Source of the DNA: Candidatus Bathyarchaeia archaeon
Lineage (GTDB): Archaea > Thermoproteota > Bathyarchaeia > Bathyarchaeales > Bathycorpusculaceae
Length of the DNA: 64,000 nt
Assembly (NCBI GenBank): GCA_050015395.1
Contig: JBEKBM010000005.1
Span: 1 to 64,000 of the forward strand
Reading direction: 5' to 3'
The position numbers and the translations under genes are program-made. Below are positions 21 to 25,031 of this stretch, one piece after another. The notes under the pieces were generated by a model. The model ran no database searches. It saw only the letters and a list, made by a program, of their open reading frames with translations, and had not been told where the DNA came from. The first letter of the stretch is position 1. Each line of letters opens with the position of its first letter.

Positions 21-737
21 ATGAAAGTTGTCGTCCACTGGAGTGGGGGCAAAGAATGCTGCTTAGCTTACCACAAAGTCATCAAACAGGGACATCAGGT
101 TGCTTATCTTCTCACCTTTGAATACATGAAACCGTATGTTTTCCACAGTTTCCCAGTGATGGAACTCCAATCCAAAACTTTGGGAACTCCGTTGAAGCGG
201 GTTAGAATTAAGAAGGCATATGAGGGCATCCTCAAAGCTCTTACAAAATTACACGATGAAGAGGGCATCGAAGGCATTGTAACCGGCGACATAGTCGGAG
301 CAGGATGCGCCGTTGTCCACTCTAGCTACTACGAGAGTATGTGCAAACAGTTGGGCATGGCTTTCATGATGCCCTTGGAAAACCCTTCAGGAGACACTTA
401 CGATGTGTTGAAAGAAGTGGTTCAGACCGGCTTAAGACCAGTATTAAGCTGTATTAATACCAATTTCTTTGGTGAAGAATGGTTAGGACGCGCAATCGAC
501 ACCACATCCATCAAAGAATTAAAAGACTTAGCAGACGAAAAAGACATTGACGTTTCCAGCGAAGACGGACAAGGTTACCACAGCACAGTTGTCGACGCGC
601 CGCTTTTCAAAGAGTCCATCGGAATTGGCAAATTTAAGAAGAAGACTAAGAAGGAAAAGTCGAAGACCTGGAAAAGAAATTGGCTATACATGGACATCAA
701 AGAAGCATATTTAAAACCCAAAGAAACGCCCAAATGA
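21..737 (+). CDS. DUF71/Dph6-like PP-loop ATPase (diphthine-ammonia ligase family), divergent paralog 1
   Basis: WSGGKEC PP-loop variant, VTGDI, GYHSTVVDAPLFK; close paralog of 4623..5366. Confidence 0.85.
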   Translation: MKVVVHWSGGKECCLAYHKVIKQGHQVAYLLTFEYMKPYVFHSFPVMELQSKTLGTPLKRVRIKKAYEGILKALTKLHDEEGIEGIVTGDIVGAGCAVVHSSYYESMCKQLGMAFMMPLENPSGDTYDVLKEVVQTGLRPVLSCINTNFFGEEWLGRAIDTTSIKELKDLADEKDIDVSSEDGQGYHSTVVDAPLFKESIGIGKFKKKTKKEKSKTWKRNWLYMDIKEAYLKPKETPK

Positions 738-889
738 CAAGCAAACGAAGATTCCTCATTATTAATTCCTAACTTTTTACCGTTATTTCTGGTAATTTGT
801 GTAGTTTACAAAAAATCTAATTTTTGCATAAAGTAAATGAACCTGAACGCGCTTAAAGGGTACAAAACTCTATTGTTTCAGGGAAGAAC

Positions 890-2302
890 ATGAAAACTCG
901 CGTAACCCTTGTGAATCCACCCTACCCTGTCGGTTCCCATCAGCATCCACCTTTTATGCCCTTAGGCATCGGGTACTTAGGTGCGGTGTTGTACAAGAAT
1001 CATTTTGAAGTTAACGTGATTGATTGCCAAGCGCAAAAACTCACTCACAAACAGTTCAGAGAAGAAATTGGTAAAGTCCAACCTGACATAGTTGGAGTCA
1101 CCTCTACCACTCTTACCTACAAGTCTGCCCTTCGAATAGTAAAAATATGCAAGGAAGTTTGGCCAAACTGCATAACTGCAATCGGAGGTCCGCATGTTAC
1201 CTTCTGGGATGACAAGGCATTGCAAGAAGAGCCGTCGTTAGATGTTGTTGTCAGGGGAGAGGGCGAAAACACCATGCTGGAGCTTGCACAGAGAGTGGAG
1301 AAAGATCAAGCTTTCCATGACCTTGTAGGCACTACTTGCAGGAAGGGCACAGAAATCATAAAGAACCCTGATAGGCCTTTCTTGGAAGACCTCGACAGCT
1401 TGCCTTATCCAGCGCTTCACCTTTGGCAGCATACGGAGAATCTGCGGAAGTACGGAACGATACCTTATCCCGTGATGACTAGTCGAGGCTGCGTGTACTG
1501 GTGCAACTTCTGCACAGCCGTCCGCATGTTCGGCAGAAGATACCGCATGCGCAGTCCAAAAAGTGTAGTTGACGAGTTGGAGTTTCTCCACAGAAACTAC
1601 TATGCAAACCAATTCACGTTCTACGATGATGCATTCACGGTGGATCAAGCCCGAACCGCGCAGATATGTGAGGAAATTCAGCGGAGAGGACTAAGAATCA
1701 AGTGGGATTGTGAAACCCGAGTAGACATGGTAACCAAAGAACTCCTTGTCAAAATGAGGGAGACAGGTTGCATAGCCGTTTGGTTCGGCGTCGAATCAGG
1801 TTCAAAGAAAGTTTTAAACAGCATGGGGAAAGGCTTCTCACTTACTCAAACAAGAAGAGCATTCAAGTGGGCAAAAGAAGCAGGATTGATGACGGTTGCA
1901 GGTGTCATTTTGGGTTTTCCTGGCGAAACAAAAGAGAGCGCTTGGGAAACAATTAGGTTTGTGAAGGAACTTAACCCTAATGATGTAGGATTCTACATAG
2001 CCACACCTTACCCTGGAACACCGATGTACGAAGAGGTCAAAGCCAATGGGTCCCTAAAGATAACTGATTTCGACAAATATGACACTGCTACACCAACCTT
2101 TGGGATTCCAAACATGACCATGCAAGAACTCACCGAAATTAGGGAACAAGCATTCCAAAGCTTCTACCTTAGCCCAGCCTACTTCGTCAGCGCGTTGGGC
2201 ATGTTTAAGCAAGGAAAAATGTGGGGTCTAGGCGCAACCCGCCTCATACTGGCTCATGCACGAAGGGCAATCAGGGCAAAGGCAAACAGCATAATGAAGT
2301 AG
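890..2302 (+). CDS. B12-binding domain radical SAM protein (class B, methyltransferase-like)
   Basis: PLGIGYLGAVL and GGPHVT B12-binding domain; TSRGCVYWCNFC; FYDDAF; GVESGS; TPYPGT. Confidence 0.9.
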   Translation: MKTRVTLVNPPYPVGSHQHPPFMPLGIGYLGAVLYKNHFEVNVIDCQAQKLTHKQFREEIGKVQPDIVGVTSTTLTYKSALRIVKICKEVWPNCITAIGGPHVTFWDDKALQEEPSLDVVVRGEGENTMLELAQRVEKDQAFHDLVGTTCRKGTEIIKNPDRPFLEDLDSLPYPALHLWQHTENLRKYGTIPYPVMTSRGCVYWCNFCTAVRMFGRRYRMRSPKSVVDELEFLHRNYYANQFTFYDDAFTVDQARTAQICEEIQRRGLRIKWDCETRVDMVTKELLVKMRETGCIAVWFGVESGSKKVLNSMGKGFSLTQTRRAFKWAKEAGLMTVAGVILGFPGETKESAWETIRFVKELNPNDVGFYIATPYPGTPMYEEVKANGSLKITDFDKYDTATPTFGIPNMTMQELTEIREQAFQSFYLSPAYFVSALGMFKQGKMWGLGATRLILAHARRAIRAKANSIMK

Positions 2303-2331
2303 AAAAACGGCAAAATGGAGAAAGCCCAAAA

Positions 2332-3702
2332 TTGATTTTACTAATGACCACTGCCCCACCCTTAAAATCGCCTTGGGGCATGGCGGGAAAGCTTCCTCCA
2401 TTGGGCTTAGCGTATGTTGCTGCCGCTTTAGAAAAGGCTGGTTTCCAAGTAGACATTTTTGATAATTACCTGCTGGAGCGGCCAATAGAAGAAGTAAAAT
2501 CGGAAGTGAAGAAGCGCTCGCCAGAAATAGTAGGCATAACCTGTAGCTCATTGACTTACGAGCGGTGTATCAAAACAGCCAAAGCAGTCAAAGAAGCATA
2601 CCCATCCTGTAAAGTCGTAGTGGGAGGTCCTCATCCATCGTACATGCCCCAAACCATGCTGCAGCACGAAGAGATAGATTACGTGGTTATTGGCGAGGGA
2701 GAGCAGGCAATGGTGAAACTTGCCGCCAGCATCATGAAAGGCGAAGAAAACGCGGTGATTGCCAAAATTCCAGGCGTTGCATGCAGGATAGGCGGTGAGG
2801 TGGTGAAGAGTGCGCCTGAATTCATCAACGATTTGGATCAGGTTCCCTTTCCAGCGCGTCATCTGCTGCCGATGCAAATGTACGACCGTGCACTAAGCTA
2901 TTTGAGTGTTAAACCAGTCGATACCATGAGCATACTGCGTGGCTGCCCATACAATTGCGCGTACTGCGAAACTAGAGAATTATGGGGAACCACATGTCGA
3001 GCCTTCTCCCCACAAAGAGTCATAGACGAAATAAAGCATATGGTTGAAAACTATGGTTCAAAGGGAATCTACTTCGTCGGCGACAACTTCACCATAAACA
3101 AAAAACGTGCTGCTGACCTGTGCAGACTAATCAGAAATAACAAAATAGACGTCAAATGGACATGCGAAACCAGAGCTGACCTTATCTCCAAAGAGTTGCT
3201 TGTTGAAATGAAATCTGCTGGTTGCCAAACCATATTCTTTGGAGTAGAATCCGGTTCACCCACAATCCAGCAAAAACTGGAGAAAAAGATCGATTTGCAT
3301 GAAGTCGAGCGTACTTTTGAGCTTTGCAGGCAAGTGGGAATACGAACGGCCACTTCTTTCATGCTGGGCATCCCTGGCGAAACAGTCAACGACATGAAAG
3401 CCACATTTAAGTTTGCGAAGCATCTAAACGCTGACTGGTGTCAATTCAACATTTATGTGGCGTGCCCGGGCAGCAGACTGTACGATGAAGTGATGAGCCA
3501 AGGCTTGTACGATCAGATGGATAACTATTTGGCAAGGGTCAAAACCAAAGAATTCGATTACGACATGCTCGTCAAGATTCAGCGGGATTTCCAGCGTGGC
3601 TGCCAGAAGTCGGCGGCGTCTAAGCTGATTCGCGTAATTAAGCAGGAAGGCTTAGGCAGCGCAGTTAAGAAAGGTGCTTCGTTGGTTTTCCACCGCAGTT
3701 AA
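2332..3702 (+). CDS. B12-binding domain radical SAM protein (class B), paralog 2
   Basis: PPLGLAYVAAAL, GGPHPS, RGCPYNCAYC, GVESGS. ORF is open from 2221; start more likely TTG 2332 or ATG 2344. Confidence 0.88.
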   Translation: MILLMTTAPPLKSPWGMAGKLPPLGLAYVAAALEKAGFQVDIFDNYLLERPIEEVKSEVKKRSPEIVGITCSSLTYERCIKTAKAVKEAYPSCKVVVGGPHPSYMPQTMLQHEEIDYVVIGEGEQAMVKLAASIMKGEENAVIAKIPGVACRIGGEVVKSAPEFINDLDQVPFPARHLLPMQMYDRALSYLSVKPVDTMSILRGCPYNCAYCETRELWGTTCRAFSPQRVIDEIKHMVENYGSKGIYFVGDNFTINKKRAADLCRLIRNNKIDVKWTCETRADLISKELLVEMKSAGCQTIFFGVESGSPTIQQKLEKKIDLHEVERTFELCRQVGIRTATSFMLGIPGETVNDMKATFKFAKHLNADWCQFNIYVACPGSRLYDEVMSQGLYDQMDNYLARVKTKEFDYDMLVKIQRDFQRGCQKSAASKLIRVIKQEGLGSAVKKGASLVFHRS

Positions 3703-4214: not shown

Positions 4215-4511
4215 TTAAATTGGCACGTTGATTGTTTTTAGAATGTTGCGGTAAGCCTCGAGCGGCGTTTCCTTGTCGCTTACGTTTTTAATCAGCATGC
4301 GTCCCCCGTCAAAGAGGCTTATGTCCAGCTTCATGTAATCAAACATTAAGACCATTTGAGACTTAACGCGGATCTTGAAGTGCTGTTTCTTGATTTTTTC
4401 GCATGCGTCGTTCATGTTGAACTTTAACGGTTGCGCTGGAGTTATGTCTGCAGTTGTTCCTCCGCAGAGCCAAACAACGTTTAGGTTACCAACAACTTCC
4501 TTTTCCGTCAA
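4215..4511 (-). CDS. Small protein resembling the C-terminal domain of ThiF/MoeB-family proteins
   Basis: LCGG..., ISLFDGGRMLIKNVSD...AY pattern; no adenylation domain upstream. Confidence 0.5.
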   Translation of the reverse strand: MTEKEVVGNLNVVWLCGGTTADITPAQPLKFNMNDACEKIKKQHFKIRVKSQMVLMFDYMKLDISLFDGGRMLIKNVSDKETPLEAYRNILKTINVPI

Positions 4512-4622
4512 CCAGCTTCAACTCCAACCTTTGTATTGGTTTAGGCGTATACTTGCTTTATCAACATTGCCATAAAACACCTAACCGCGGCTAATCCGTG
4601 GCAGACGGTAATCTCAAGTTTC

Positions 4623-5366
4623 TTAGGCTGGGCTGGGATTTTTGGGTTTAAGAACTGCTTCTTCAATGTCCATGTAGAGAAAGTCTCCTTCTCGGTAGGG
4701 TGAACCGCCAAAGTCGACGACTCGGCTTTTCTTTGTGAACTTGGTGATTTCAATGCGTTCTTTGAATAGCGGTGCATCAAGCGATGTCGAGTGATATTCT
4801 CCAGGTTCTCCTGAAACGTCTATTCCTTTACCGGGCGGACCAACTAGGGGTTTCATGTCTTCGATGCATTTTCTGTCTATTTGTCGCCCTAGCCATTGTT
4901 CGGTGAAGTATCTTTGGTCGATGCAGCTGAGGATTGCTTTTACTCCGGTTGACTGTTCCATTTCCATGATTCGTTTTCGGTGGCGATTGCCTGGGATGAG
5001 GTTGAGTGGTCTATCCCACAGCGGCATTAGGAGTTTGACGTTTAGTTTTTTGCAGGCGTCTTTCCATACCCGTCGGTGATGCACGTTGTCAATGTCGCCT
5101 GTTACGATGGCTTCAACGCCTTGCTCTTTATGGAGCCTTTCCAGTGTTCCCATGATGTCGTCATAGCGGTTGTCCGTAATTTTCACAAACTGGTGAGGAA
5201 CGCCCAGAGCCTTGGCTTGTAGCTCTATTACTTTAAAACTGTGGAAAACGTAGGGTTCCATATAGATGTACGTGACGAGGCATGCTATTTCGTGACCCTG
5301 CTCTACCACCTTGTGAAGTGCTGTGCAGCAATCTTTTCCTCCGCTCCAGTGGACAACCACTTTCAT
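4623..5366 (-). CDS. DUF71/Dph6-like PP-loop ATPase, paralog 2
   Basis: WSGGKDC, VTGDID, GEPGEYHS..DAPLFK. Confidence 0.87.
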   Translation of the reverse strand: MKVVVHWSGGKDCCTALHKVVEQGHEIACLVTYIYMEPYVFHSFKVIELQAKALGVPHQFVKITDNRYDDIMGTLERLHKEQGVEAIVTGDIDNVHHRRVWKDACKKLNVKLLMPLWDRPLNLIPGNRHRKRIMEMEQSTGVKAILSCIDQRYFTEQWLGRQIDRKCIEDMKPLVGPPGKGIDVSGEPGEYHSTSLDAPLFKERIEITKFTKKSRVVDFGGSPYREGDFLYMDIEEAVLKPKNPSPA

Positions 5367-5515: not shown

Positions 5516-6601
5516 TCAGCATTTTTCAAGAATTTCTTTTAATGTTTCTGCGAGTTTTTGGTTGTCTTCAGCTGATCTGACTGTGATTCTGAAGTAACTG
5601 TCGTCTAAGCCTACGAAGGTGCAGCAGTCGCGGATTAGGATGTTTTCTTTAGCCAGCATTTCCTTTAGTTTTGTGGACGTGATTTTTCGGTTGAGAATTT
5701 TTACAAGCACAAAGTTTGTTACTGACGGGTAAACGTGTAAGCCTTCGATTTCGTTTAGGTTTTTGGTAAGCTGCGCTCTTTCCTTGGCGATTGTTTGTTT
5801 AGTGTTTTGGATGAATTCCGTGTCGTTAAACGCTGCAAGCGTCGCTACGCCTGCCAAACCGTTAATACTCCATGGCAGCCTAACCGTCTCAAGCTTATCT
5901 ATGAGATTTCGTGCTGCTATGCCGTAGCCTAAGCGTATGCCTGGCATGCCGTAGAATTTTGTAACCGACCTGATCACAAAGAGGTTCTCGTACTCCTTCA
6001 CCATACCAGCCAACGTGGTCTCTTGCCCTTTATCCGCAAACTCAATATAGTTCTCGTCTACGCTGAAGATTATGTCTTTTTTATGGCAGAACTCAACAAG
6101 ATCCAAAACCGCTTCCTTACTGTACAAAGTTCCTGAGGGACTGTGAGGGTTGCAAATACACATTATTTTAGTGTCGCCAGTTACCGCCTTCTTAATTTTC
6201 TCTGTTTCTAACGCAAAATTTTGGGGCAACTGAACAAACACTGGCTTGCTGCCAACTCTCAAAGCCGCTTTCTCATACTCTGAGAACGAAGGTACAGGAA
6301 TAACCGCGTTAAAGCCACGGGGTAAAATTTCAGTAATCGCGTAAATTAGCTCAATTGAGCCGTTGCCTAAAATGATGTTTTCTTCTTCAACGCCGTGCCC
6401 CACGTACTTGGCAACTTCTGCTTTAAACTCAACAGGGTTAGGGTCAGGATAAAACCTAATCAAATTAGCGTACTGCTTAACAGCTTCAACAGCTTTAGGC
6501 GAAGGACCAAGAAAATTGATTGGCCCGCTGAACTCAAACACTTCTTCAAGGGGAACATTGTATTTTCGGATAAAACCCCAAATGTCTCCGCCATGGCTCA
6601 C
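5516..6601 (-). CDS. cobD: L-threonine-O-3-phosphate decarboxylase (PLP class I/II)
   Basis: N-terminal HGGD, FS.PIN.LG, YPDP, GNGS.ELI, RSVTKFYGMPGIRLGY; cobamide gene context. Confidence 0.8.
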   Translation of the reverse strand: MSHGGDIWGFIRKYNVPLEEVFEFSGPINFLGPSPKAVEAVKQYANLIRFYPDPNPVEFKAEVAKYVGHGVEEENIILGNGSIELIYAITEILPRGFNAVIPVPSFSEYEKAALRVGSKPVFVQLPQNFALETEKIKKAVTGDTKIMCICNPHSPSGTLYSKEAVLDLVEFCHKKDIIFSVDENYIEFADKGQETTLAGMVKEYENLFVIRSVTKFYGMPGIRLGYGIAARNLIDKLETVRLPWSINGLAGVATLAAFNDTEFIQNTKQTIAKERAQLTKNLNEIEGLHVYPSVTNFVLVKILNRKITSTKLKEMLAKENILIRDCCTFVGLDDSYFRITVRSAEDNQKLAETLKEILEKC

Positions 6602-6614: not shown

Positions 6615-7172
6615 TTACACGTATCCGACAGCTTTCTCTTCCTCCATTAGCCTACCTACTTCTTTTTCAACTTGCAACTGAGCTTTAAAGTGAGCGTTAT
6701 ACAAGTTAACAACCTTGTATAGCCAGTAAACTACCCCAACGCCCAACGTAACAATGGTAATCAAAACATAAGTTTTTATCGGTATCGTCTGGGTCATAAA
6801 CATCCGTTCTGGAAAAGCACTCGCAAGAAACTCGTCCTGATTTCGTTCATGCACCAATAAATCCATAGACAAAAGGTAAAGAATGACAAAAACTGGAACA
6901 ACTAAAACGATGCTGGCAGCCCACGCCTTTGCATTCCTCTCTGCAAAGCGTTCGCTTGTAGCAGGCGGCGGCTCTTTCCCATTGCTCTTCAAATAAGCAT
7001 TAATCTGCTTCTCTAGATCAGCCTCACGCTGAAAATGCCTATTCCTGCCCTCAATCAGGCGGTAGAACATGGGGAAAAACGCCAACCCGAAAGTAACAAT
7101 CGCAGCCAAAAACCACATGGAAAACCATATTTTCCTGTTAGCGTCAACTTTACTGTTCATAGCGGTTTCCAT
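6615..7172 (-). CDS. Membrane protein (DUF4234-like, two LGxxxxYW-type hairpin repeats)
   Basis: Hydrophobic segments IVTFGLAFF...HF and IVTLGVGVVYWLYK...HF; 13 bp upstream of cobD. Confidence 0.55.
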   Translation of the reverse strand: METAMNSKVDANRKIWFSMWFLAAIVTFGLAFFPMFYRLIEGRNRHFQREADLEKQINAYLKSNGKEPPPATSERFAERNAKAWAASIVLVVPVFVILYLLSMDLLVHERNQDEFLASAFPERMFMTQTIPIKTYVLITIVTLGVGVVYWLYKVVNLYNAHFKAQLQVEKEVGRLMEEEKAVGYV

Positions 7173-7255
7173 CTAAGTCAAACTACCCATTCAACTGCTT
7201 ACAAAGTTGGGGTAGCCAAACTTTATAAGTTCTTCCATTGGCATCTAAAGATAAA

Positions 7256-7954
7256 ATGAGCCGAAAGGAAATGTTGCTTTCCGTAATAATTCCCGTTTAC
7301 AACGAGGAATTAACCATAGGCAACATAATCGACCGCGTAAAAGCGGTGGTGCAGCAAACAGGCTTAAAAAACGAAATAATCATTGTGGACGACCACTCAT
7401 ACGACAAATCGCTTCAAGTAGCCAAAGCTCACAGCATCAAACTCTACACTTTAAAACAGCACTTGGGCAAAGGCTTTGCACTGCGAGCAGGGTTTGCCAA
7501 AGCAAAAGGCGACATAATAGTCACCATTGACTCAGACGGCTCACATCGACCAGAAGAACTTCCCGAAGTGTTGGAGCCAGTTCTGCAAGACAAAGCTGAT
7601 CTCGTTATAGGTTCAAGATACCTAAACCACAAACGAGTAGCTTCAAGGCGCCTAAACGCTTTCGGCGTTAGACTCTTCAACTATTTTATCCAGTTACTAA
7701 CCGACGTCGTCATTACTGATTCCCAGTCAGGTTACCGAGCCATGAAACGTGAAGTGCTGAAAAGCCAAAAGCTAAAGTCAGGCGAATACGAAATAGAATC
7801 AGAAATGCTCGTCAAAACAGCCAAAAAAAAATTCCGAATCGCTGAGGTGCCGATAAGTTTTGAGCAGCGAACCTACGGCAGGTCAGGAGTTGACCCAATG
7901 GTTGACGGATTCAAAATTCTCTTATCGATAGTTTCAGCGTACATGAAGGGTTAA
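7256..7954 (+). CDS. Glycosyltransferase family 2 (Dol-P-Man synthase-like)
   Basis: SVIIPVYNEE, VDDHS.D, DSDGSH, DSQSGYRA; ORF open from 7238. Confidence 0.9.
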   Translation: MSRKEMLLSVIIPVYNEELTIGNIIDRVKAVVQQTGLKNEIIIVDDHSYDKSLQVAKAHSIKLYTLKQHLGKGFALRAGFAKAKGDIIVTIDSDGSHRPEELPEVLEPVLQDKADLVIGSRYLNHKRVASRRLNAFGVRLFNYFIQLLTDVVITDSQSGYRAMKREVLKSQKLKSGEYEIESEMLVKTAKKKFRIAEVPISFEQRTYGRSGVDPMVDGFKILLSIVSAYMKG

Positions 7955-7959: not shown

Positions 7960-8964
7960 TTGGCTGGCAACGTGTATCCTAAAGTTTCAATCATAGTTGC
8001 AGCCTACAATAATGAGCAAACAATCGAGGAATGTCTCAAATCAATTCTGGCGCTGGATTATCCCGCAGGCTTCATTGAAGCTATCGTCATGGACGGCGGC
8101 TCAAAAGACACCACTGTCAAAATAGCAGAAAATTTCCCTGTCAAAGTTGTTTCCATTCGATTAAACGCTCCAGCAGCCTACAATTACGCCCTGAAAATTG
8201 CCACGCACTCGGTTTTGGGCTTCATAGATGCAGATGCTAAAGTGGAATCGCAATGGCTAAGAAAGCTTGTACTTCACTTGGAAGAGCCTAAAGTGGCAGG
8301 AGTCAGCGGCAGCATAGAAACTTGGAATGCCCAAAACCCGTGGGCAAAAAGCATCGGTTACGAACTTAAAAACCGCTACAGCCGCATAGGAAAATACACA
8401 AGCCGCATAGCCACCATGAATCTGCTGCTGAAAAAAGAGGTTATCGAAGAGGCTGGCGGATGGGATGAAAACTTGCCAAGCCAATATGACACAGACTTAG
8501 GCTTCAGAATAAGCGCTAAAGGTTACAAAATCGCTTACGAACCAAACGCCATCTGCTACCACTACAACAGGCCGACAGTTCGAGCTTATTACAGGCAGCA
8601 GTTGCAATACGGAAAAAACACTTTAAAACTATACTTTAAACATGGACGCTTGGCCAAAGGTGATGAAATCACGGATTTTGGCATGAACATTCAGCCAGTA
8701 CTGCTCTTAGCTGTCATTGCGTTTTTCCTTCTGGGAATCATAGAAGTGCTTAGACCCTTGTGGTACATTTCAGGCTTAATTTTAGTCTTAATGCTTGTTT
8801 ACTTCGTTTACTCCGCCGCCAAAATTGCCGTTAAGTTCCATGATAAGGTAGCTTTGCGGTTGGTCGTGCTATATTTTGTGAGAGCGTTCGCTTGGTTTGT
8901 CGGCGCAATAATAACCACCATCAACTACGCTAGAGGCAAAGGGAGGAAAACGCCCAATGTGTAG
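7960..8964 (+). CDS. Glycosyltransferase family 2 with C-terminal TM helices
   Basis: SIIVAAYNNE, DGGSKD, FIDAD, GGWDE, RQQLQY; hydrophobic C-terminus. Confidence 0.9.
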   Translation: MAGNVYPKVSIIVAAYNNEQTIEECLKSILALDYPAGFIEAIVMDGGSKDTTVKIAENFPVKVVSIRLNAPAAYNYALKIATHSVLGFIDADAKVESQWLRKLVLHLEEPKVAGVSGSIETWNAQNPWAKSIGYELKNRYSRIGKYTSRIATMNLLLKKEVIEEAGGWDENLPSQYDTDLGFRISAKGYKIAYEPNAICYHYNRPTVRAYYRQQLQYGKNTLKLYFKHGRLAKGDEITDFGMNIQPVLLLAVIAFFLLGIIEVLRPLWYISGLILVLMLVYFVYSAAKIAVKFHDKVALRLVVLYFVRAFAWFVGAIITTINYARGKGRKTPNV

Positions 8965-12105: not shown

Positions 12106-12107
12106 AC

Positions 12108-13532: not shown

Positions 13533-13650
13533 CCGCGGTCGGTCTCCTGAGACAGCAATTCTGGTTTAGAGTAGGTTGCGTGATGATGTTAAATATTTCG
13601 CAAACCCCAATGTGTCACCACGATAGTCTCTTTTCTTCAGGCAAAAATGC

Positions 13651-15110: not shown

Positions 15111-15158
15111 ATACCCTACAACTAATTGAAAGATAATATAGACTTTGTCGTGAATTGT

Positions 15159-16966: not shown

Positions 16967-18429
16967 CCAAAACCAAAAGCGTCTGTCCTGAATGCCAGAA
17001 AAAAATTGATGCCGAATTAACCGAAGTTAACGGGAAAATTAAAATCACTAAACAATGTCCTGAGCATGGAGTTTTCGAAGCTACTCACTGGCAAAGCCCA
17101 GGCGTCTTTAATCACATGCAAACTTATGACCAATTCCAATATCTTGGCGACTTAAACGCCCCGAAAAACCCTGAAGGCTGCCCATATGTCTGCGAATCGT
17201 GCACTAATCATGCTTCAGGCACTGTCATAGGAGTCATCGACGTAACCAAACGATGCAACTTAAAATGTGCCGTCTGCTTCTCCACGTTTCCCCAACAAGA
17301 AGTTGATTATGAACCAACAAAACAAGCCCTCGTAAACATGCTGGAGTTCGTAAGCAAAGCTAACCCCAAGCCTCCAGCCATCCTGTTCTCAGGCGGCGAA
17401 CCCCTAGAACGCGAGGACATGCCTGAAATCATCGGCGTCGCCCATAAGCTGAAGTTTATGACTATTCTTGCGACCAATGGGACGCATTTGGCTGAGAACC
17501 CACAGTTAGCGGAGAGACTAAAAAATAACGGTTTGAACATTGTTTACTTACAGTTTGACAGTTTCCACGACGACTTTTACAAGAAAGTTAGAGGGCAAGC
17601 GCTCTTAGACCACAAACTAAAGGCTATTGAGGTATGCCGCAAATACGACATCGAAATAATCCTCGTCAACACATTAATGAAAAGTTTAAACGATAAAGAA
17701 GTCGGCGACATAATCAAGTTCGCTGCAAAAAACACTGACATAATCAGAGGCTTAATTTTCCAGCCAATCGCCTTTACTGGCCGAGCGACAGAAAACCCGT
17801 TTAGAGAAAACTTCCGCGAATGGTCTTTTGCAGAAGACGTGGAAAACCAAACGCAGGGAGAAATAAAAACTACCGATTTGTTTCCCATGTCAGTGATGAC
17901 TTCACCCATAAAGATAATGCGCAAGTTCATGAAAAAGCCTTGGCCACTATTCTCATGCAGCCCACAATGCGGCATCGTCAATTGGATTTACGTTACAAAA
18001 AAGGGCAAAATGATTCCAATTAACCGTTTCGTTAACTTTGACAGGTTCTTTAAAAGCATTCGCAAAACCGCCGAGTCTGCTGATTCTAAGGGCAAGATTT
18101 CGCTTCTTTCAACACTCTTCTTGGCATCGATGGAGTCGATGAACTGGTATTTAGTTACTAAAGAAGTCGGTATGTTGACTCTTACAAACGCAATTATGAG
18201 GATGCATCTTTCTCCATCCTACCAATCGCTTGGCAAGGTACGCAGAAGAATCTTCCTTTTAGGCTGCATGGCGTTTATGGATTCATACAACTTTGACGTT
18301 AACCGAGTTAGACGATGCGTAGTCCACTACATCACGCCAGACTTGAAAATCATACCATTCTGCGCATACAACAATATACATAGAGTTGCAATCGAAAAAG
18401 AGTACGCTGAAACTCATAAGAAGGCTTAA
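16963..18429 (+). CDS. tes: Tetraether lipid synthase (Tes/MJ0619)-like radical SAM enzyme
   Basis: CPEC...CPEHG, CPYVCESCTNH, DVTKRCNLKCAVC, YLQFD, FQPIAFTGR, PQCG, RRCVVHY..IPFCAYN. Confidence 0.8.
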   Translation: MTKTKSVCPECQKKIDAELTEVNGKIKITKQCPEHGVFEATHWQSPGVFNHMQTYDQFQYLGDLNAPKNPEGCPYVCESCTNHASGTVIGVIDVTKRCNLKCAVCFSTFPQQEVDYEPTKQALVNMLEFVSKANPKPPAILFSGGEPLEREDMPEIIGVAHKLKFMTILATNGTHLAENPQLAERLKNNGLNIVYLQFDSFHDDFYKKVRGQALLDHKLKAIEVCRKYDIEIILVNTLMKSLNDKEVGDIIKFAAKNTDIIRGLIFQPIAFTGRATENPFRENFREWSFAEDVENQTQGEIKTTDLFPMSVMTSPIKIMRKFMKKPWPLFSCSPQCGIVNWIYVTKKGKMIPINRFVNFDRFFKSIRKTAESADSKGKISLLSTLFLASMESMNWYLVTKEVGMLTLTNAIMRMHLSPSYQSLGKVRRRIFLLGCMAFMDSYNFDVNRVRRCVVHYITPDLKIIPFCAYNNIHRVAIEKEYAETHKKA

Positions 18430-18932
18430 CTTATTACTTGAATGTTTAAGACACAATAATCAGCGTGCGCGCTAAATTGGTAAGCTCCTGAATCTTGATT
18501 ATACTGCCAGAGCTCAAAAACCACCGAGTAGCTTCCAACTTGATTTTCCGTAACTGTGACTGACTTTTGCCAGCTTTGACCATTCCCTAAGGTCATATTA
18601 TACACTTCAGTGGGCTGAGTATTAACTGGAAAAGTTGTAAGGTCATTGGTGATTTTCACTAAAACCTGGTATTGCACGGTCCCTCCCATGTTGTTCACAA
18701 CGGTAACCGGCACGTTGAATGTGCTGTTCTGATTAGCAACCAAAACTGCAGGGTAATCAACGGCTTTGTTTTGTGAATCAAGCAAATAAATTGTGCTATA
18801 CCCCGCCGGCGCCGGCCTAAAAAACACAAAGTAACTTACAGCTAGTGCAGAAATAATTACTAAGGCAAGGAAAATGGCGACTGCATAGCCTTTTTCATCG
18901 TTTAAACCAATTTTTCTGCCAATATTCTTCAT
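18426..18932 (-). CDS. DUF1616-like membrane-anchored protein
   Basis: One TM helix then YLL.....DYP..L, V.N.MG...Y; track ORF to 19124 overlaps the GT2 gene, so the true start is probably 18932 or 18953. Confidence 0.65.
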   Translation of the reverse strand: MKNIGRKIGLNDEKGYAVAIFLALVIISALAVSYFVFFRPAPAGYSTIYLLDSQNKAVDYPAVLVANQNSTFNVPVTVVNNMGGTVQYQVLVKITNDLTTFPVNTQPTEVYNMTLGNGQSWQKSVTVTENQVGSYSVVFELWQYNQDSGAYQFSAHADYCVLNIQVIS

Positions 18933-19644
18933 TTTTTCTAACCATGTCGGCATCCAGAAGGCCCCTAAATATAGTGCTAAATATTTCAATTCCTGACTTA
19001 AATTTTTTGAGCTTGGTTTTCCCGTATTTTCGGGCTTTATACGTGGTGGAGACTTCAACCATGCTGTATCCTTCTTTGGCGAATTGTACAAGCATTTCAG
19101 TAGCGAAAGCCATGTCTCCCTCATTTAACTTAACATTGTCGATGGCCTCATGAGATATTGCTCGGAAACCAGATTGTGTGTCGCTTAGAAATTGGCTGTA
19201 GAAGAAGTCGAAAAAGAAGGTAATCACTTTGTTTCCAACAAAATTCATGAATCCCATGGCTTTGTTTGGGTCATACATGCGAGTGGCTAAAACCATGTCA
19301 GCGTCTGTCTGAATCATCCTATCCAGCAAGCGGTTGATGTGTTTTACCTCGTAGGTTCCATCGCCGTCAACCATCACAATAATGTTTCCTTTCGCGTTTT
19401 TCATGCCTGTTTTAAGAGCAGTACCATACCCGAGTCTTGGTTCAATAATAAGCTTGCAAAAACTTGTGTCTTTAACGATTTCTATTGTTCCGTCAGTGGA
19501 GTTGCCGTCAACAACGATTATCTCCTTTGGATATGCCAAATCTTTCTCGATGGTTGTGACAGCCTCTAAGATGTTTCCTGCTTCATTGAGTGTTGGAATT
19601 ACCACCGAGACCAGTTCTACTTTCGACGTCATGCTAACTCCCAT
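18895..19644 (-). CDS. Glycosyltransferase family 2
   Basis: SVVIPTLNEA, VDGNSTDGT, DGDGTY, DTQSGFRA. Confidence 0.9.
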   Translation of the reverse strand: MGVSMTSKVELVSVVIPTLNEAGNILEAVTTIEKDLAYPKEIIVVDGNSTDGTIEIVKDTSFCKLIIEPRLGYGTALKTGMKNAKGNIIVMVDGDGTYEVKHINRLLDRMIQTDADMVLATRMYDPNKAMGFMNFVGNKVITFFFDFFYSQFLSDTQSGFRAISHEAIDNVKLNEGDMAFATEMLVQFAKEGYSMVEVSTTYKARKYGKTKLKKFKSGIEIFSTIFRGLLDADMVRKNEEYWQKNWFKR

Positions 19645-19673
19645 CGTAAGGCTATATTATTTCATTATCTTGG

Positions 19674-20831
19674 TTAAATAAGTTCTTCGTATATCCCAAT
19701 AAGTGTTTCAACGTTTTTATCCCAACTAAACTTTTCTTCCATTACTGCTCGAAGCTCTAATTTGCGTGAAGAAAAATCAATATTAGAAAATTCCAAAATT
19801 GCTTTTGCAAGCAGTTCAGGCTGGTTAGATGGCACTAATTTTCCGTAATCTTCCATTAAAATTTCACTTATTCCTCCAACGTTTGTGGCTATTACTGGCA
19901 ACCCGCAAGCCATGGCTTCGAGCGCAACCAAAGGCAAGCCTTCTCCTGATTTTGATGGTAGCACAAAGAAGTCTGCCGCGTTATAGTAAAACGGTAAATC
20001 TTCATCTTTAACAAAACCTGTAAGCCTAAAATTGTTTTCTATCCCTAACTGTCGTATTCTCATTTGAACGTTGTTTAGGTCTGGTCCTTTTCCAACGACT
20101 AGAAAAGTAATCTTTGGGTTCTTTCTGACTGCTATGTTTGCGCTTTCTATTAATGTGTCAATACCGTTTTTGTAAACAAGCCTTCTAACGGTTAAAACGA
20201 CGATTGAGTTTTGGGAAATTCCCAGTTTTCTTCTCATTTCTTCTCGTTTTCCAGTCAAGGGCCTGAAATGAACCAAGTCAACGCCGTTGTGTAACACTTT
20301 AATCTTCTCTGGTTTTGCTCCTAAACTTAGGACATAATCCTTGGTTGCATTGCTCACAGTGATTATTTTGTCGGCTTCTTTTAGCGTCTCCTTTCCAACT
20401 GCCAAATCGTTTAACCGTTCAACACTGTCAAAAATGCTGTCATATTCAATGAAGGTGTTATGTTGCGTCAGCACAAATGGCTTAGAGTACCTCTTCGCAA
20501 GCTTAGCTGCAATAAGCGACGTAAGGTACGGGTGACCATGCGCATGGACTATTTCACTTGATTTTACAGCTTTAAGAAAAGTTTCAAGACTTGTTACTGT
20601 CGGAATCGAGTAGGGTATTCCCAGACGGAAACCAGTGTTTAACGATTCATAACACTCAACCTTAATGCCGTCAACAACATAACTTTTCGGTGTATCAATT
20701 CGGTTTGTTATCACCATGGGTTCAAAGTTATTCTGTAGTAGCCGCTTGTTCTGCTCATAAACAACCCTTTCTATTCCGCCAATATGGGGTAGAAAAGTAT
20801 GTGTAACAATGCAAAGCCTTGTTTGAACCAT
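19674..20831 (-). CDS. Glycosyltransferase family 4
   Basis: PHIGGIE, HNGVD, EGLPLVALEAMACGLPVI; ORF open to 20858. Confidence 0.92.
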   Translation of the reverse strand: MVQTRLCIVTHTFLPHIGGIERVVYEQNKRLLQNNFEPMVITNRIDTPKSYVVDGIKVECYESLNTGFRLGIPYSIPTVTSLETFLKAVKSSEIVHAHGHPYLTSLIAAKLAKRYSKPFVLTQHNTFIEYDSIFDSVERLNDLAVGKETLKEADKIITVSNATKDYVLSLGAKPEKIKVLHNGVDLVHFRPLTGKREEMRRKLGISQNSIVVLTVRRLVYKNGIDTLIESANIAVRKNPKITFLVVGKGPDLNNVQMRIRQLGIENNFRLTGFVKDEDLPFYYNAADFFVLPSKSGEGLPLVALEAMACGLPVIATNVGGISEILMEDYGKLVPSNQPELLAKAILEFSNIDFSSRKLELRAVMEEKFSWDKNVETLIGIYEELI

Positions 20832-21053
20832 GGAAGCCCAACTGCTTAAACTCCTCAATCAACATAGTATTATAACCTTATGGTAAAACAAAGTCTCGTC
20901 ATTAACAGCTAAGGTGGTGTACTTTTTGTTACTTAAACTATCAAGCAAATAGCATATCCCCTCCCCTACCTCAATTTAACTATAGAAACTCTCTAGTAAC
21001 ATTGACTTATCCTACATAGGCTGCCTGCAAAAATTAAATCGGAAAAAAGTGTT

Positions 21054-21551
21054 TTATGGTTTAGCTTGTGCGTTTTTAGTGGCGCGTGTATAAACGTTTG
21101 ATGATACGCCTGCAACTAAAGCGCCTATAGCGTCGTTTGTGATTGAGCCGAGCTTCTTTAGAATCCCCGGTTTAGCTTGGTCAAACCGTACGTATTCGAA
21201 AACTGCTCTGGTTCCACCGATGTAGCTAGCAATTGCTATTCCTAAAACTTCGTCAGCAACTGGTCCTGGTCTACCCCTGAACCTTTCTTGCGTCAATCCT
21301 GGAATAAGTCCCTTCTCTGCATCTTCCTGCGCATGGAAAGCAGCCGTTTCAAGGATGCAAACATTAACATCATTCAGAACATCGAGAAATTCTTCCCTGA
21401 GCATTTCAACGGCTTTTTCTTCCGTTTCCACTCCTGGATGAGGCACAAACATTTCAAGCGCACAGTGAATGAGGCTTTTTAGGGAAATGTCTTTTTTTTC
21501 AAGGTATTCAAGTAATGGTGGCGTTTCCTTGTTCATATTATTCACTCTCAT
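21054..21551 (-). CDS. cobZ: Archaeal alpha-ribazole phosphatase CobZ (PgpA-like)
   Basis: DVNV, ADEVLG..IASYIGG, RFDQAKPGIL..LG...DAIG; divergent from the cobT-cobS-cobY operon. Confidence 0.78.
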   Translation of the reverse strand: MRVNNMNKETPPLLEYLEKKDISLKSLIHCALEMFVPHPGVETEEKAVEMLREEFLDVLNDVNVCILETAAFHAQEDAEKGLIPGLTQERFRGRPGPVADEVLGIAIASYIGGTRAVFEYVRFDQAKPGILKKLGSITNDAIGALVAGVSSNVYTRATKNAQAKP

Positions 21552-21869: not shown

Positions 21870-22547
21870 ATGAAAGTTGTTGCTTCATGGAGTGGCGGAA
21901 AAGACAGTTGCTTTGCATACTACAAGGCAACCCAGCAAGGCTACGAAGTAGTCAACATTTTAACCATGATGATGAGTGAAACCAAATCAAACTTCCACAT
22001 GATACCATCAGGCATAATAGACGCGCAATCAGACGCCATTGGAATTCCATTAGTAAAACAGAAGGCTACGCCTGAAACCTACGAGAACGATTTCAAAGGC
22101 GCATTGCTACGGTTGAAAGCTAAAGGCGTAGAAGGCTTAGTTACAGGGGATATTTACGAAGTGGCAGGGCATGAGGAAGGTTGGCTGAACCGGGTCTGCA
22201 AAGAAGTCGGCTTAAAACCAGTAAAGCCCCTGTGGATGGGTGACACAAAACAGATTTACCTTGATTACTTAAAGAGCGGTTTCAAAGCGACCGTAGTGCG
22301 CACCAAACTGGAATTGTTAGGCATGGAGTGGCTCGGAAGACAACTAGACAAAAAATTCTACGACGACATCCTTAAGCTTGGCAACGTTGACGCCTGCGGC
22401 GAAGGCGGCGAATACCACACCGTCGTGACTGACGGACCAACGTTTAAGAAAAAGATTGAAATTCTAGAAACACAAAAACATAAGCTCGACGGCGGCTTCG
22501 GATACTTAGAAATCAAACGATTCGAAGTCAAGCCGAAGGCAAGGTAA
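21870..22547 (+). CDS. DUF71/Dph6-like PP-loop ATPase, canonical motifs (B12-associated subgroup)
   Basis: SWSGGKDS, VTGDI, DACGEGGEYHTVVTDGP; first gene of the cobT operon. Confidence 0.9.
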   Translation: MKVVASWSGGKDSCFAYYKATQQGYEVVNILTMMMSETKSNFHMIPSGIIDAQSDAIGIPLVKQKATPETYENDFKGALLRLKAKGVEGLVTGDIYEVAGHEEGWLNRVCKEVGLKPVKPLWMGDTKQIYLDYLKSGFKATVVRTKLELLGMEWLGRQLDKKFYDDILKLGNVDACGEGGEYHTVVTDGPTFKKKIEILETQKHKLDGGFGYLEIKRFEVKPKAR

Positions 22548-22556
22548 AACTCAAAA

Positions 22557-23657
22557 ATGGACAAGACACTCGATGTACTAATAGCACACAACCCGTTAAA
22601 AGCCAAAGCATTCCTCGACGAAATCGAAGGCAAAAACCCCCTTTTCATCTGTACAATAGCTACAACGGAAACTGGCAAAATCTCTGGAATCTCAGCAGCA
22701 GGAAAACACCCAGAATTTACCGATTACACCCCGCCAGCGGACGCTGAACTGCTACTTCTAGGCAAATGCAAATCCATTACTGGTGTGCCTGTAACTCCAG
22801 ATGGAATTCCGACACCAGCATTGATAACTATGTCGGCTCTACGCTTAGCCGATATTCCCGTGCTTATTGCCAGTGGCGGATTAAAGATAAAACCGCAGAT
22901 ACCCTTTTTAGACCTCGGCGGAAGCCCAGGAAGAGACATTCGAAGTGGCAACGCCGTTGATAACGTTGCAGAGGTTATTGAGCGAGCTAAAATTGCTGGA
23001 CAACACTTAGCTAAGGTAGTTGATTATCTTGTGATTGGCGAGAGTATTCCTGGCGGAACAACAACAGCGCTTGGCGTACTATCAGCTTTAGGCGTAAAAG
23101 CTGAAGGAAAAGTAAGCAGCACCTTGCCTGAAAACCCACACAGCTTAAAAGCGCAAACAGTTAAGGCAGGTTTAGCGGCTGCAGGCGAAAGTTTTGGCAG
23201 TTTAGCAAACAATCCCGCAAGGGCTATTTCATGCGTCGGCGACCCCATGATGGCTGCCTTCTTAGGCTTAGTGGTTGGCGCAGCATCGCAGGTTCCAGTA
23301 CTGATGGCTGGCGGAACTCAAATGAGCGCTGTCTTAGCCCTTGTGAACGCATTGAATCCAGATGTTCTCTGCAACCTAGCAGTGGGCACTACAAGATGGG
23401 TTGTAAACGACAAGTCATCTGACCTGAAAGGCATTGTTACACAGTTTTGTGACGTGCCTATTTTGGCTGCTGACTTAAACTTTGGCTCATCACGTTTCCC
23501 TGGTTTACAGGCGTATGAAACGGGCATTGTGAAGGAAGGTGTCGGTGCAGGCGGCGCTTCTATAGCGGCTATGGCTAAGCTTGGCGGTGCAGTAACAAAA
23601 GACCTATTGCTTAAAGAGATAGAGCGTAATTATGCCTTGTTGATGGGCTTGAAGTGA
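22557..23657 (+). CDS. cobT: Archaeal nicotinate-mononucleotide:base phosphoribosyltransferase CobT
   Basis: GISAAG, YTPPADAE, PTPALIT, GESIPGGTTTA, GDPM, AGGTQM, KEGVGAGG. Confidence 0.92.
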   Translation: MDKTLDVLIAHNPLKAKAFLDEIEGKNPLFICTIATTETGKISGISAAGKHPEFTDYTPPADAELLLLGKCKSITGVPVTPDGIPTPALITMSALRLADIPVLIASGGLKIKPQIPFLDLGGSPGRDIRSGNAVDNVAEVIERAKIAGQHLAKVVDYLVIGESIPGGTTTALGVLSALGVKAEGKVSSTLPENPHSLKAQTVKAGLAAAGESFGSLANNPARAISCVGDPMMAAFLGLVVGAASQVPVLMAGGTQMSAVLALVNALNPDVLCNLAVGTTRWVVNDKSSDLKGIVTQFCDVPILAADLNFGSSRFPGLQAYETGIVKEGVGAGGASIAAMAKLGGAVTKDLLLKEIERNYALLMGLK

Positions 23658-23664
23658 ATTTGGC

Positions 23665-24420
23665 TTGGTTATTAAAGAGTTAAAGAACCTTTTTTCTTTC
23701 CTCACAATTTTTCCAGTAACAATGGACAAAGACATGCTTTCTGACTGCGCCAAGAGCATGTGGGTTTTTCCCTTAATAGGCGCATTTATTGGCTTGTTGG
23801 CTGGGTTGTTCGGCTGGGTAGCTTACCAGTTTTTACCAGGCATAGTAGTTGGCGCTTTAGTGTTGGCTTTGTTGCTGTTGATTACGGGGCTTCACCACAC
23901 AGACGGCTTATTAGACTTCGGCGACGGAGTCATGGCTCACGGCACAGCTGAGCATAAGATTGAGGTTATGCATGACCAGTTAACTGGCGCAGGCGGCTTA
24001 TCCATGGGCATCATGACTATGCTAATTACAGCCTTAGCCATCGGCCAGCTCAAAATTGGCTTAATAATCGGCGGCATCATCGCTGTTGAAGTTTCAGCTA
24101 AACTTGCCATGGTTATTATGGCGTGGGCTGGAAAATCAGTCCACCAAGGCATGAACTCGCCCTTTCTAGAAGCCATGCATGGAAGTAAAGGCAACTTGCG
24201 ACTGATTGTTGCAGTGGTGGTTTCTTTTGCGGTAGCTTTGCCTCTGCTGCATTGGGCAGGCGCTTTCATCGTGCTAGCAGCCATAATTACTAGCTTTGTC
24301 ATGGTTGCCATTGCGCATAAACATTTCAACGGCGTTACAGGCGACGTGTTCGGTGCTACTAACGAGATAACCAGAATGGTTTGCGTGATTGTTTTGTTGG
24401 CGGTGGCTGCATGGGCGTAA
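23665..24420 (+). CDS. cobS: Adenosylcobinamide-GDP ribazoletransferase (cobamide synthase)
   Basis: FLTIFPV, TGLHHTDGLLDFGDG, MHDQLTGAGG, GVTGDVFGATNE. Confidence 0.92.
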   Translation: MVIKELKNLFSFLTIFPVTMDKDMLSDCAKSMWVFPLIGAFIGLLAGLFGWVAYQFLPGIVVGALVLALLLLITGLHHTDGLLDFGDGVMAHGTAEHKIEVMHDQLTGAGGLSMGIMTMLITALAIGQLKIGLIIGGIIAVEVSAKLAMVIMAWAGKSVHQGMNSPFLEAMHGSKGNLRLIVAVVVSFAVALPLLHWAGAFIVLAAIITSFVMVAIAHKHFNGVTGDVFGATNEITRMVCVIVLLAVAAWA

Positions 24421-25031
24421 CAGCACTTGTTATGGCTGGCGGAAAAGGAACCCGCATGCAAATCGCAAAAGAGAAGCCGTTGATTAAACTTTGCGGTAAA
24501 CCCGTCATCGAGTACGTGCTGGAGGCGTTGAAAAGCGCTAAAAAAATCGATTCCATCGTTGTCGCTGTGAGTGGTTGCACGCCTAAAACTGCGAAATTCC
24601 TGAGTCAGTTTCCAGTTAAAGTGGCTGAAACCCCCGGGGTGGATTATGTTTCTGACATGGGCTATGCTGCCCAAAACCTCAAATTAGGCGTTTTCTTAGC
24701 CATCGCAGCAGACCTTCCACTGGTCACAGGCGAAGTGTTGGATGCTATTGTTGAACGTTATGAGCGTTGCGGTAAGCCGGCGTTAACTGTTGCTGTTCCG
24801 CTTGAAACCAAAACTAAGCTTGGCATGTGCATCGAGTACTCGTTCAAAATGGACGACAGAGACGTGGTTCCTGTAGGCATCAACGTTATAGATGGGCATA
24901 AACGGTATGGCGACGAATGGCTCGACCAAGACATTTTCCTGCTCGACCTAAACGAATTAGCCGTAAACATCAACACAATACAGGAACTACACCTAGCCGA
25001 ACGATTACTGACTCAAAAAAGCAAAGAATAG
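24411..25031 (+). CDS. cobY: Adenosylcobinamide-phosphate guanylyltransferase
   Basis: MAGGKGTRM..EKPL, TPG.DYV.D, ADLP, GINV, NINT. Confidence 0.88.
   Translation: MGVTALVMAGGKGTRMQIAKEKPLIKLCGKPVIEYVLEALKSAKKIDSIVVAVSGCTPKTAKFLSQFPVKVAETPGVDYVSDMGYAAQNLKLGVFLAIAADLPLVTGEVLDAIVERYERCGKPALTVAVPLETKTKLGMCIEYSFKMDDRDVVPVGINVIDGHKRYGDEWLDQDIFLLDLNELAVNINTIQELHLAERLLTQKSKE

Follow-up and report, generated by a model that had tools for sequence, protein, structure and literature searches.

We describe a 25-kb gene block at the start of contig C5 (JBEKBM010000005.1) of a Candidatus Bathyarchaeia archaeon (assembly GCA_050015395.1; 2.59 Mb, 42 contigs, 98.9% complete). The window, that is, the whole stretch analysed, comprises the first 64,000 nucleotides of this contig, and the block occupies positions 21–25,031 with 26 open reading frames (ORFs), in which genes for ether-lipid assembly lie among genes for the nucleotide loop of cobamides. 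Based on its occurrence in related genomes, the block is a real conserved island and not a chance neighbourhood. On sequence evidence we favour, at a probability of roughly 0.55, a lineage-specific, Bathy-6-type biosynthetic island that would make an additional membrane-spanning ether lipid, tailored and carrying sugars, and that is genetically tied to the closing, membrane-bound steps of cobamide synthesis. The prenyltransferase UbiA' would add the second isoprenoid chain to a glycerol-phosphate-type backbone, the tetraether synthase paralogue Tes2 would couple two such diethers tail to tail, a Gms-like enzyme would bridge the chains, B12-binding (class-B) radical S-adenosylmethionine enzymes (B12-rSAMs), where present, would methylate, cyclise or desaturate them, and glycosyltransferases (GTs) would build the sugar head groups. 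On the cobamide side, CobD', CbiB' and CobY' would be working cobamide enzymes, CobS' would take the product of CobY and perform a job that the canonical CobS2 cannot, and co-location would serve the joint supply or regulation of corrinoid for an expanded B12-rSAM set. The prime marks divergent copies of cobamide genes and, in UbiA', the third DGGGPS-family gene of the genome; the 2 of Tes2 marks a divergent Tes, and CbiB' is a divergent CbiB on contig C23. Genes were called by ORF listing followed by Pfam and NCBIfam profile scans of the window proteins, which recovered in place every gene named in a first-pass annotation of this DNA.

Conservation and core of the island

Synteny was compared across 40-kb stretches from ten relatives and in five further, more distant genera with small genomes. 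All ten relatives carried the same genes over 40 kb, and each of the five genera had a compact, 17-kb island with no foreign gene inside. In genome G376 this compact form reads CbiB'-CobD'-orf185 / GT2a-GT2b-GT4a / DUF362-SPASM / CobY'-CobS' / UbiA'-Tes2 / DUF1616-GT2c-GT4b / DUF71c-CobS2-CobT. The same gene set was present in G052, a member of a second family (f7), at about 46% protein identity, in another internal order and between other flanks. For a wider census, 80 loci were fetched around Tes2, and the 49 with full 10-kb flanks serve as the counting basis. CobS', the epimerase gene Epim and UbiA' lay beside Tes2 in 49/49 loci, with a median CobS'–Tes2 distance of 1865 bp. CobY' was found in 45 of these loci, the DUF1616 gene in 37, the SPASM gene in 36 and the DUF362 gene in 35, and the genes of the canonical cobamide module were each present in 29–33. 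Epim was missing from the compact clusters of G306, G376, G473, G354 and G274. The invariant heart of the island is CobY'-CobS', divergent from (Epim-)UbiA'-Tes2. The first-pass annotation had proposed a dedicated cluster and a synteny check, and the conservation in ten relatives, five distant genera and the core of 49 loci bears this out.

The island is restricted in its distribution. A Tes2 orthologue (at least 73% identity) was found in 34 of the 36 genomes of the genus, and the two genomes without it were 58% and 65% complete. In a class-wide draw of 401 Bathyarchaeia genomes, the Tes2 type occurred in 108, including 93/147 genomes of family f1, 14/25 of f7 (one genus only) and 0/228 across 34 other families; within this draw it is confined to two families of one order. 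The best 120 homologue matches of Tes2 were all Bathyarchaeia orthologues with at least 71% identity. Several island contigs are filed publicly under other names (L076, L143, L124, L101 and L117, as Ca. Acidoferrum, Ca. Sulfotelmatobacter, Methanocella, Crenarchaeota or Nitrososphaerota), and some of these labels look like mis-binning.

Co-occurrence was scored in a draw of 151 genomes at the family level; as these genomes are related, the counts do not amount to a statistical test. CobS' and Tes2 were both present in 59 genomes and both absent in 92, with no discordant genome. We weighed these data against the possibility that lipid, glycan and cobamide modules met once in an ancestor and were then kept or lost as a block without functional coupling, in which case CobS' would be a slightly specialised second cobamide synthase. 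The distribution does track taxonomy, with identity decreasing in steps between genera and between families, from 96% down to 46%, and CobS' is publicly annotated as an ordinary ribazoletransferase. The canonical cobamide module is moreover separable: inserts of 6–7 kb split it off in G003 and G029, the 40-kb stretches of G014, G008 and G052 lack it, and it stands alone in Tes2-negative genomes. Such passive inheritance nevertheless fits poorly with an internal order that is reshuffled between lineages while membership is kept, and with flanks that differ (GatB and an amidase in G052; a TIM barrel protein resembling AP endonuclease and an ECF transporter in the window). It also fits poorly with the cobamide genes of the window, which are not together and form three groups between lipid genes, and with the lack of a single discordant genome. 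We therefore regard mere inheritance of a neighbourhood as unlikely.

Lipid genes

The centre of the lipid part is an operon on the forward strand in which Epim comes first (15,126–16,091; GalE-like epimerase/dehydratase of the SDR type, PF01370 195 bits, galE model 177.7 bits against a cut-off of 262), followed by UbiA' (16,091–16,966) and Tes2 (16,963–18,429); the start and stop of UbiA' overlap both neighbours. Tes2 passes the curated Tes model NF045702 (465.9 bits, cut-off 450) and has an N-terminal zinc ribbon (PF23545) in front of the radical SAM domain (PF04055). Its residues 3–482 align to residues 24–505 of the tetraether synthase GDGT-MAS (7TOL) with 371.8 bits and retained Cys motifs, among them CX3CX2C of the radical SAM domain and those at the C terminus, and C8, C11, C32, H35, C98, C102 and C105 are invariant between families. 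A canonical Tes is encoded on contig C23. In the same genome scan it reached 672.8 bits with NF045702 versus 465.5 for Tes2; it scored 545.3 bits against the Methanocaldococcus jannaschii enzyme 7TOL and is 39% identical to Tes2. Accordingly, Tes2 is a full-length Tes homologue, yet a paralogue and not an orthologue of the characterised enzyme, and tail-to-tail joining is a predicted activity.

UbiA' belongs to the DGGGPS family (PF01040 117.5 bits; 171.5 and 168.5 bits with DGGGPS-type models). It is one of three DGGGPS-like genes in the genome, all similarly related to the solved DGGGPS, and N63, D64, D67, D71, R182, D183 and D190 of its Asp-rich motifs are invariant in 30 sequences. The first-pass annotation had suggested looking for separate housekeeping copies, and the genome does contain them: the canonical Tes on C23 and the two further DGGGPS-like genes elsewhere.

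The radical SAM/SPASM enzyme (12,108–13,532, reverse) has an AhbD-like core at residues 118–467 (TIGR04545 307.4 bits from residue 118, E 1.5e-91, cut-off 500). This core is preceded by an N-terminal extension of about 115–117 residues with a CxxC...CxxC pattern, where Pfam gave only sub-threshold zinc-ribbon matches. Six of the seven closest SPASM paralogues in the same genome have 350–382 residues and are too short for such an extension. In the definition of Garcia et al (2024, PMC11214058), Gms is a homologue of AhbD that is longer at the N terminus by about 100 residues (COG4001). In its core and in the length of its extension the protein fits this architecture of a tail cross-linking enzyme and is a candidate Gms; the first-pass annotation had listed it as a SPASM rSAM, the enzyme type to which GMGT synthase belongs. 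The DUF362 gene (11,140–12,105, reverse; PF04015 168 bits) is its constant neighbour in family f1.

These three enzymes also speak to the idea that the whole island tailors a corrinoid and not a lipid. UbiA' would then resemble chlorophyll or heme O synthase in having a tetrapyrrole as its substrate, the AhbD-like enzyme would modify a side chain of the corrin, and the DUF71 proteins would modify side-chain amides. UbiA' does match chlorophyll synthase as well (52.5 bits; ChlG model 89.4 bits), heme b synthase is the nearest curated family of the SPASM enzyme, and de Crecy-Lagard et al (2012, PMC3541065) predict a B12-salvage function for the DUF71-B12 subfamily. However, UbiA' is far closer to the DGGGPS of M. 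jannaschii (6M31, 117.2 bits), the SPASM enzyme has an N-terminal extension like the one by which Gms differs from AhbD, Tes2 matches a tetraether synthase of known structure over its whole length, and the five GTs would be left without a role. We give corrinoid tailoring very little credence.

The five GTs travel with the lipid genes of the island. On the forward strand, GT2a (7,238–7,954) resembles polyprenyl-phosphate hexose synthases of the AglJ type (PF00535; TIGR04182 159 bits, below the cut-off of 325), GT2b (7,960–8,964; PF00535 and PF13632) is membrane-embedded with three C-terminal hydrophobic helices, and GT4a lies at 8,957–10,150 (PF00534 and PF13439). On the reverse strand are the AglJ-like GT2c (18,895–19,644; PF00535, TIGR04182 157.5 bits, below cut-off) and GT4b (19,674–20,858; PF00534 and PF13439). 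GT2c is overlapped by a gene for a DUF1616-type membrane protein with an uncertain start (18,426–19,124, reverse; PF07760 47.9 bits). An AglB/STT3 oligosaccharyltransferase, a GPT-like GT of family 4 and an OST3/6-like ORF are encoded at 56,850–63,718, 32–39 kb off the island, so the protein-glycosylation machinery is separate from the five GTs.

A class I methyltransferase gene (10,215–11,024, reverse; PF08241) had also been counted as a member of the cluster. At this site it was absent from 10/10 relatives, and it was present in 1/49 loci; between GT4a and the DUF362 gene it occurs only here and in L067, from a relative with a 95% identical Tes2. It is a strain-level insertion and drops out of the cluster.

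Cobamide genes and B12-binding enzymes

Two sets of cobamide genes can be distinguished. The canonical set consists of CobZ (alpha-ribazole phosphatase, 21,054–21,551, reverse; TIGR03161 121.2 bits, cut-off 152.5), the forward-strand module DUF71c-CobT-CobS2-CobY2 and a CobD-CbiB pair of the type found on contig C27, where CobD scores 313.2 bits with TIGR01140 and adjoins CbiB. In the module, DUF71c (21,870–22,547; PF01902 189.5 bits) is the first gene, followed by the archaeal CobT (22,557–23,657; TIGR00303 394.4 bits, above the cut-off of 240), the cobamide synthase CobS2 (23,665–24,420; TIGR00317 156.5 bits, cut-off 110) and the adenosylcobinamide-phosphate guanylyltransferase CobY2 (24,381–25,031; TIGR00454 144.3 bits, below the cut-off of 174.7). 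The prime set was met only together with Tes2. It comprises CobD', an L-threonine-phosphate decarboxylase paralogue (5,516–6,601, reverse) that narrowly misses the CobD equivalog (TIGR01140 282.3 bits, cut-off 290.55; 155.8 bits to PDB 1LC5), CbiB' beside a B12-rSAM on C23, and the reverse-strand operon of CobY' and CobS'. CobY' (13,651–14,283) is a MobA-like guanylyltransferase (TIGR00454 124 bits and NF045495 101 bits, both below cut-off). CobS' (14,280–15,110) is a divergent cobamide-synthase paralogue and a borderline pass of the model (TIGR00317 110.3 bits, cut-off 110).

According to BLASTP within the genome, the window holds the only CobS genes (two), the only CobY genes (two), the only CobT and the only CobZ. 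Five Tes2-negative relatives with a CobS (four of f1, one of f12) had the canonical set only, arranged as in the window; their CobY is 46–53% identical to CobY2, and DUF71c adjoins CobT there too. The cobamide genes of the island are therefore the main loop-assembly genes of the organism plus duplicates. The first-pass annotation had read the block as a lipid cluster with its own cobamide supply; the dedicated lipid cluster coupled to cobamide nucleotide-loop genes stands, and the private supply does not.

Retention of the two CobS genes followed a simple pattern. Both types were kept in 59/59 Tes2-positive genomes, and of the 92 Tes2-negative genomes five had the CobS2 type only and 87 had no CobS. 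The two types are 35–36% identical. Their signature motif reads TGLQHFDGLiDlGNa in 16 CobS' sequences versus TGLHHtDGLLDFGDG in 17 CobS2 sequences, with the H-to-Q and D-to-N changes fixed; a second CobS motif, GD..GA.NE, is retained in CobS'. The CobS' clade is narrow, with 17 representatives at E ≤ 1e-30 among 1.84 billion searched, after which scores fall to CobS2-like matches. A sequence search for a solved CobS structure found none.

The small genomes G306, G376 and G473 (96–97% complete) are informative in this respect. In each, CobY, CbiB and the CobD-like gene occur as a single copy apiece, which is of the prime type and located inside the island or close to it, and CobT and both CobS are still present. 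CobY' is also the sole CobY in G052. Since the prime CobD, CbiB and CobY are sole copies beside CobT and CobS2, they must be able to serve ordinary cobamide assembly. Since both CobS genes are always kept while the other three drop to one copy, the two CobS are apparently not redundant. From this retention and the fixed motif changes, we infer that CobS' and CobS2 are not interchangeable. In 3/49 loci a CobY2-type gene occupies the CobY' slot beside CobS', and the donor substrate of CobS' is hence most likely the ordinary CobY product.

A separate, non-cobamide pathway built from the prime Cob genes was our first reading, and it was abandoned in view of the single-copy state in the small genomes. 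In its concrete form, the prime paralogues would have left cobamide synthesis to construct lipid head groups by a Kennedy-type route, with CobD' providing an amino-alcohol phosphate, CobY' activating it with GMP and CobS' transferring it to a lipid hydroxyl. Such a role would agree with the occurrence of the prime genes only with Tes2, with the polytopic membrane topology of CobS' and CbiB' and with the fixed substitutions in the CobS' signature motif. It is opposed by the sole prime copies beside an intact CobT-CobS2 pair in the three small genomes and by the CobY2-type gene that can fill the CobY' slot, and we consider it very unlikely. A bolder proposal, which we put forward as improbable, is that CobS' takes GDP-activated cobinamide phosphate, the ordinary CobY product, and links it not to alpha-ribazole phosphate but to a hydroxyl group on a lipid or glycolipid produced by its constant neighbours UbiA', Tes2 and the GTs, yielding a membrane-anchored corrinoid. 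This would explain why two CobS are kept while a single CobD, CbiB, CobY and CobT suffice, why CobS' always lies less than 2 kb from Tes2, why either CobY type can partner CobS' and why cobamide genes are threaded through a core without a B12 enzyme.

The left part of the island carries the two B12-rSAMs of the window, both on the forward strand (890–2,302, and 2,221–3,702 with a true start probably at 2,332 or 2,344) and both with B12-binding and radical SAM domains (PF02310 and PF04055). In an NCBIfam scan of the two proteins no model reached its cut-off, and the best (BchE, HpnJ and ApyD) stayed far below, for instance BchE at 253.6 bits against 481 for the first enzyme. This enzyme has nine class-B paralogues in its own genome, and the second is 55% identical to the product of C23:50764–52140. 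They are flanked by DUF71a (21–737, forward; PF01902 118 bits) and DUF71b (4,623–5,366, reverse; PF01902 132.8 bits), two PP-loop ATPases that are 49% identical to each other. The three DUF71 proteins of the window all match PF01902, have cob-gene neighbours and score 99.9–149.3 bits with the Dph6 equivalog, below its cut-off of 197.3 (DUF71a, at 99.9, is thus DUF71-B12-like and not Dph6; DUF71c is likewise DUF71-B12-like). Between the second B12-rSAM and DUF71b lies orf98 (4,215–4,511, reverse), probably a gene fragment, which has no Pfam or NCBIfam match, is 47% identical to part of a 349-residue ORF on contig C3 and is kept beside the B12-rSAM/DUF71 module in relatives. The module DUF71a-B12rSAM-B12rSAM-orf98-DUF71b changes position within the genus. 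The B12-rSAMs, which had been listed as cluster members, are accordingly present with conserved class domains, and they behave as a movable accessory outside the invariant core.

At least five B12-rSAM matches were found in 53/59 Tes2-positive and in 5/92 Tes2-negative genomes. One genome of the same genus, G180 (90% complete), had eight B12-rSAM matches, no Tes2-type gene and no CobS of either type; this pattern represents either a loss of island and canonical module together or an assembly gap. The closest paralogue of the first B12-rSAM (56% identical) lies at C1:131250–138614 (L156), next to genes for a corrinoid-binding protein, an MtrH-like methyltransferase and a DUF1616 fragment, with CbiZ 3 kb further on. 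This locus is another case of a class-B rSAM adjoining cobamide salvage genes.

The presence of at least two class-B rSAMs in the island in this genus also raises the possibility that its product is a butanetriol (backbone-methylated) tetraether (BDGT), as the first-pass annotation had suggested. Either a B12-rSAM would methylate glycerol, or a CobD'-type enzyme with pyridoxal phosphate would convert threonine phosphate into a C4 backbone. The literature searched does not name the enzyme that forms BDGT, and we see a chemical parallel between threonine phosphate and butanetriol phosphate. On the other hand, labelling work reportedly assigned the extra methyl group of BDGT to methionine, which we count against this product. 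The B12-rSAMs are outside the invariant core, and CobD' is needed as the sole CobD in small genomes. In addition, a review places BDGTs in the genus Baizosediminiarchaeum and subgroup 6 in another genus (PMC12694404). A butanetriol lipid as the product of the island is therefore improbable.

Several observations weigh against a glycosylated tetraether coupled to cobamide supply, which we nevertheless prefer. UbiA' is below the NCBIfam cut-offs for DGGGPS (171.5 against 269 and 168.5 against 296), as are the other two paralogues, and the five GTs could serve protein or surface glycans in place of lipids. The perfect co-occurrence of CobS' and Tes2 could stem from one gain followed by block losses in related genomes. 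As to the B12-rSAMs, G274 and G356 are Tes2-positive without any match, the two copies of G306 are on another contig than the island, and at least one B12-rSAM occurs in 63/92 Tes2-negative genomes, mostly without any CobS. Because the invariant core contains no B12-dependent enzyme, cofactor supply is not the whole reason for the linkage.

Edges, surroundings and relation to known systems

The left edge of the island in the window is the contig end, and in closed or long relatives the island runs about 20 kb further. Directly upstream of DUF71a, G034 and the closed genome G003 both carry the genes of C23:30.9–52.1 kb; besides CbiB', this leftward continuation encodes three B12-rSAMs, an amidohydrolase and a methyltransferase. 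An IS240-type DDE transposase gene lies within it (C23:47286–48434, L154:7286–8434), near the end of C23, and may be the reason why the assembly is interrupted between this contig and C5. Within the block, the small three-helix membrane protein orf185 (6,615–7,172, reverse) always adjoins CobD'; it is DUF4234-like by weak PF14018 and PF20403 matches and hydropathy, and its atlas clusters are Bathyarchaeota-specific and unnamed.

The right edge is the end of CobY2 at 25,031, and the AP-endonuclease-like TIM barrel gene, the ECF transporter module and housekeeping genes follow downstream. Just past the cobamide module are a DUF433 ORF of 75 residues (26,070–26,297) and the ECF transporter T component with two ATPases (26,419–28,874), with no S component nearby. 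Further on are a sugar group at 34,883–39,551 (two GH130 mannoside phosphorylase-like genes, a GH127/GH88-like gene, a GT4 and a CBS-domain gene) and two tandem MoeA paralogues (44,497–46,999). Rfam and tRNA scans of the window gave no RNA genes. A promoter and terminator scan at the divergent CobS'/Epim junction stayed at the level of shuffled sequence, with models that are of bacterial type and unsuited to archaea. When positions 12,000–20,000 were compared with public sequencing runs, no RNA run matched, and two runs of unstated kind shared 0.21 of words.

Among the nearest known systems are the gms clusters (Garcia et al, 2024, PMC11214058). The archaeal ones combine gms with gmm and grs, and the bacterial ones combine it with tes or mss; in Bathyarchaeota, 188 Gms and 307 Gmm homologues were counted, frequently several in the same genome. 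Like the archaeal clusters in that paper, which credits Bathyarchaeota with many Gms and multiple Gmm2 copies, the island has an AhbD-like rSAM with an N-terminal extension beside class-B rSAMs. It adds a second Tes, a third DGGGPS-like gene, five GTs and interleaved cobamide loop genes. The bacterial clusters (Acidobacteria, Planctomycetes and candidate phyla) similarly unite Tes and Gms homologues; here, in contrast, the host is an archaeon with a separate canonical Tes, and a DGGGPS-like partner and cobamide genes are not described for the bacterial clusters in the main text. The terms "Cobalamin" and "B12 biosynthesis" are likewise absent from that main text, with the supplementary cluster figures outside this comparison. 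A later preprint (Garcia et al, 2025, 10.1101/2025.10.20.683597) extends the class-B rSAM repertoire to methylases of GDGTs and to a desaturase from Bathyarchaeota. The Ted-Grs-Hgs locus of Ca. Bathyarchaeota B1_G15 in this preprint resembles the island in its clustered Bathyarchaeota class-B rSAMs, which there act on tetraether tails, whereas the regions scanned here showed no AttH-type hydratase.

On the cobamide side, archaeal loop and salvage clusters with DUF71-B12 place DUF71 paralogues beside cbiB and cob genes (de Crecy-Lagard et al, 2012, PMC3541065), and CobZ and the DUF71c-CobT-CobS2-CobY2 module of the window have the same gene kinds in the same association. The island differs from those described in that it embeds a second, non-redundant CobS and duplicates of CobD, CbiB and CobY among lipid genes. 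In the literature searched, which did not cover supplementary figures, we found no publication that connects tetraether clusters with genes for the cobamide loop and no paper on the features that appear new here: Tes2 paired with a DGGGPS paralogue, the invariant association of this pair with an apparently non-redundant second CobS, and loop-assembly genes interspersed among them.

Bathyarchaeia rank with the most abundant archaea of sediments, peat and soils, and their lipids serve as biomarkers. To our knowledge, the lineage has no representative in pure culture. The island offers a short, testable gene list for a predicted lineage-specific membrane-spanning lipid, namely the Tes/DGGGPS paralogue pair, the Gms-like enzyme and the GTs. 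Tes2 together with CobS' provides a clean genomic marker that tells potential producers and non-producers apart inside a single family. The second CobS, retained in every case, gives a concrete lead on the long-standing question of why the last cobamide steps are membrane-bound, and a new end product of the pathway may lie behind it.

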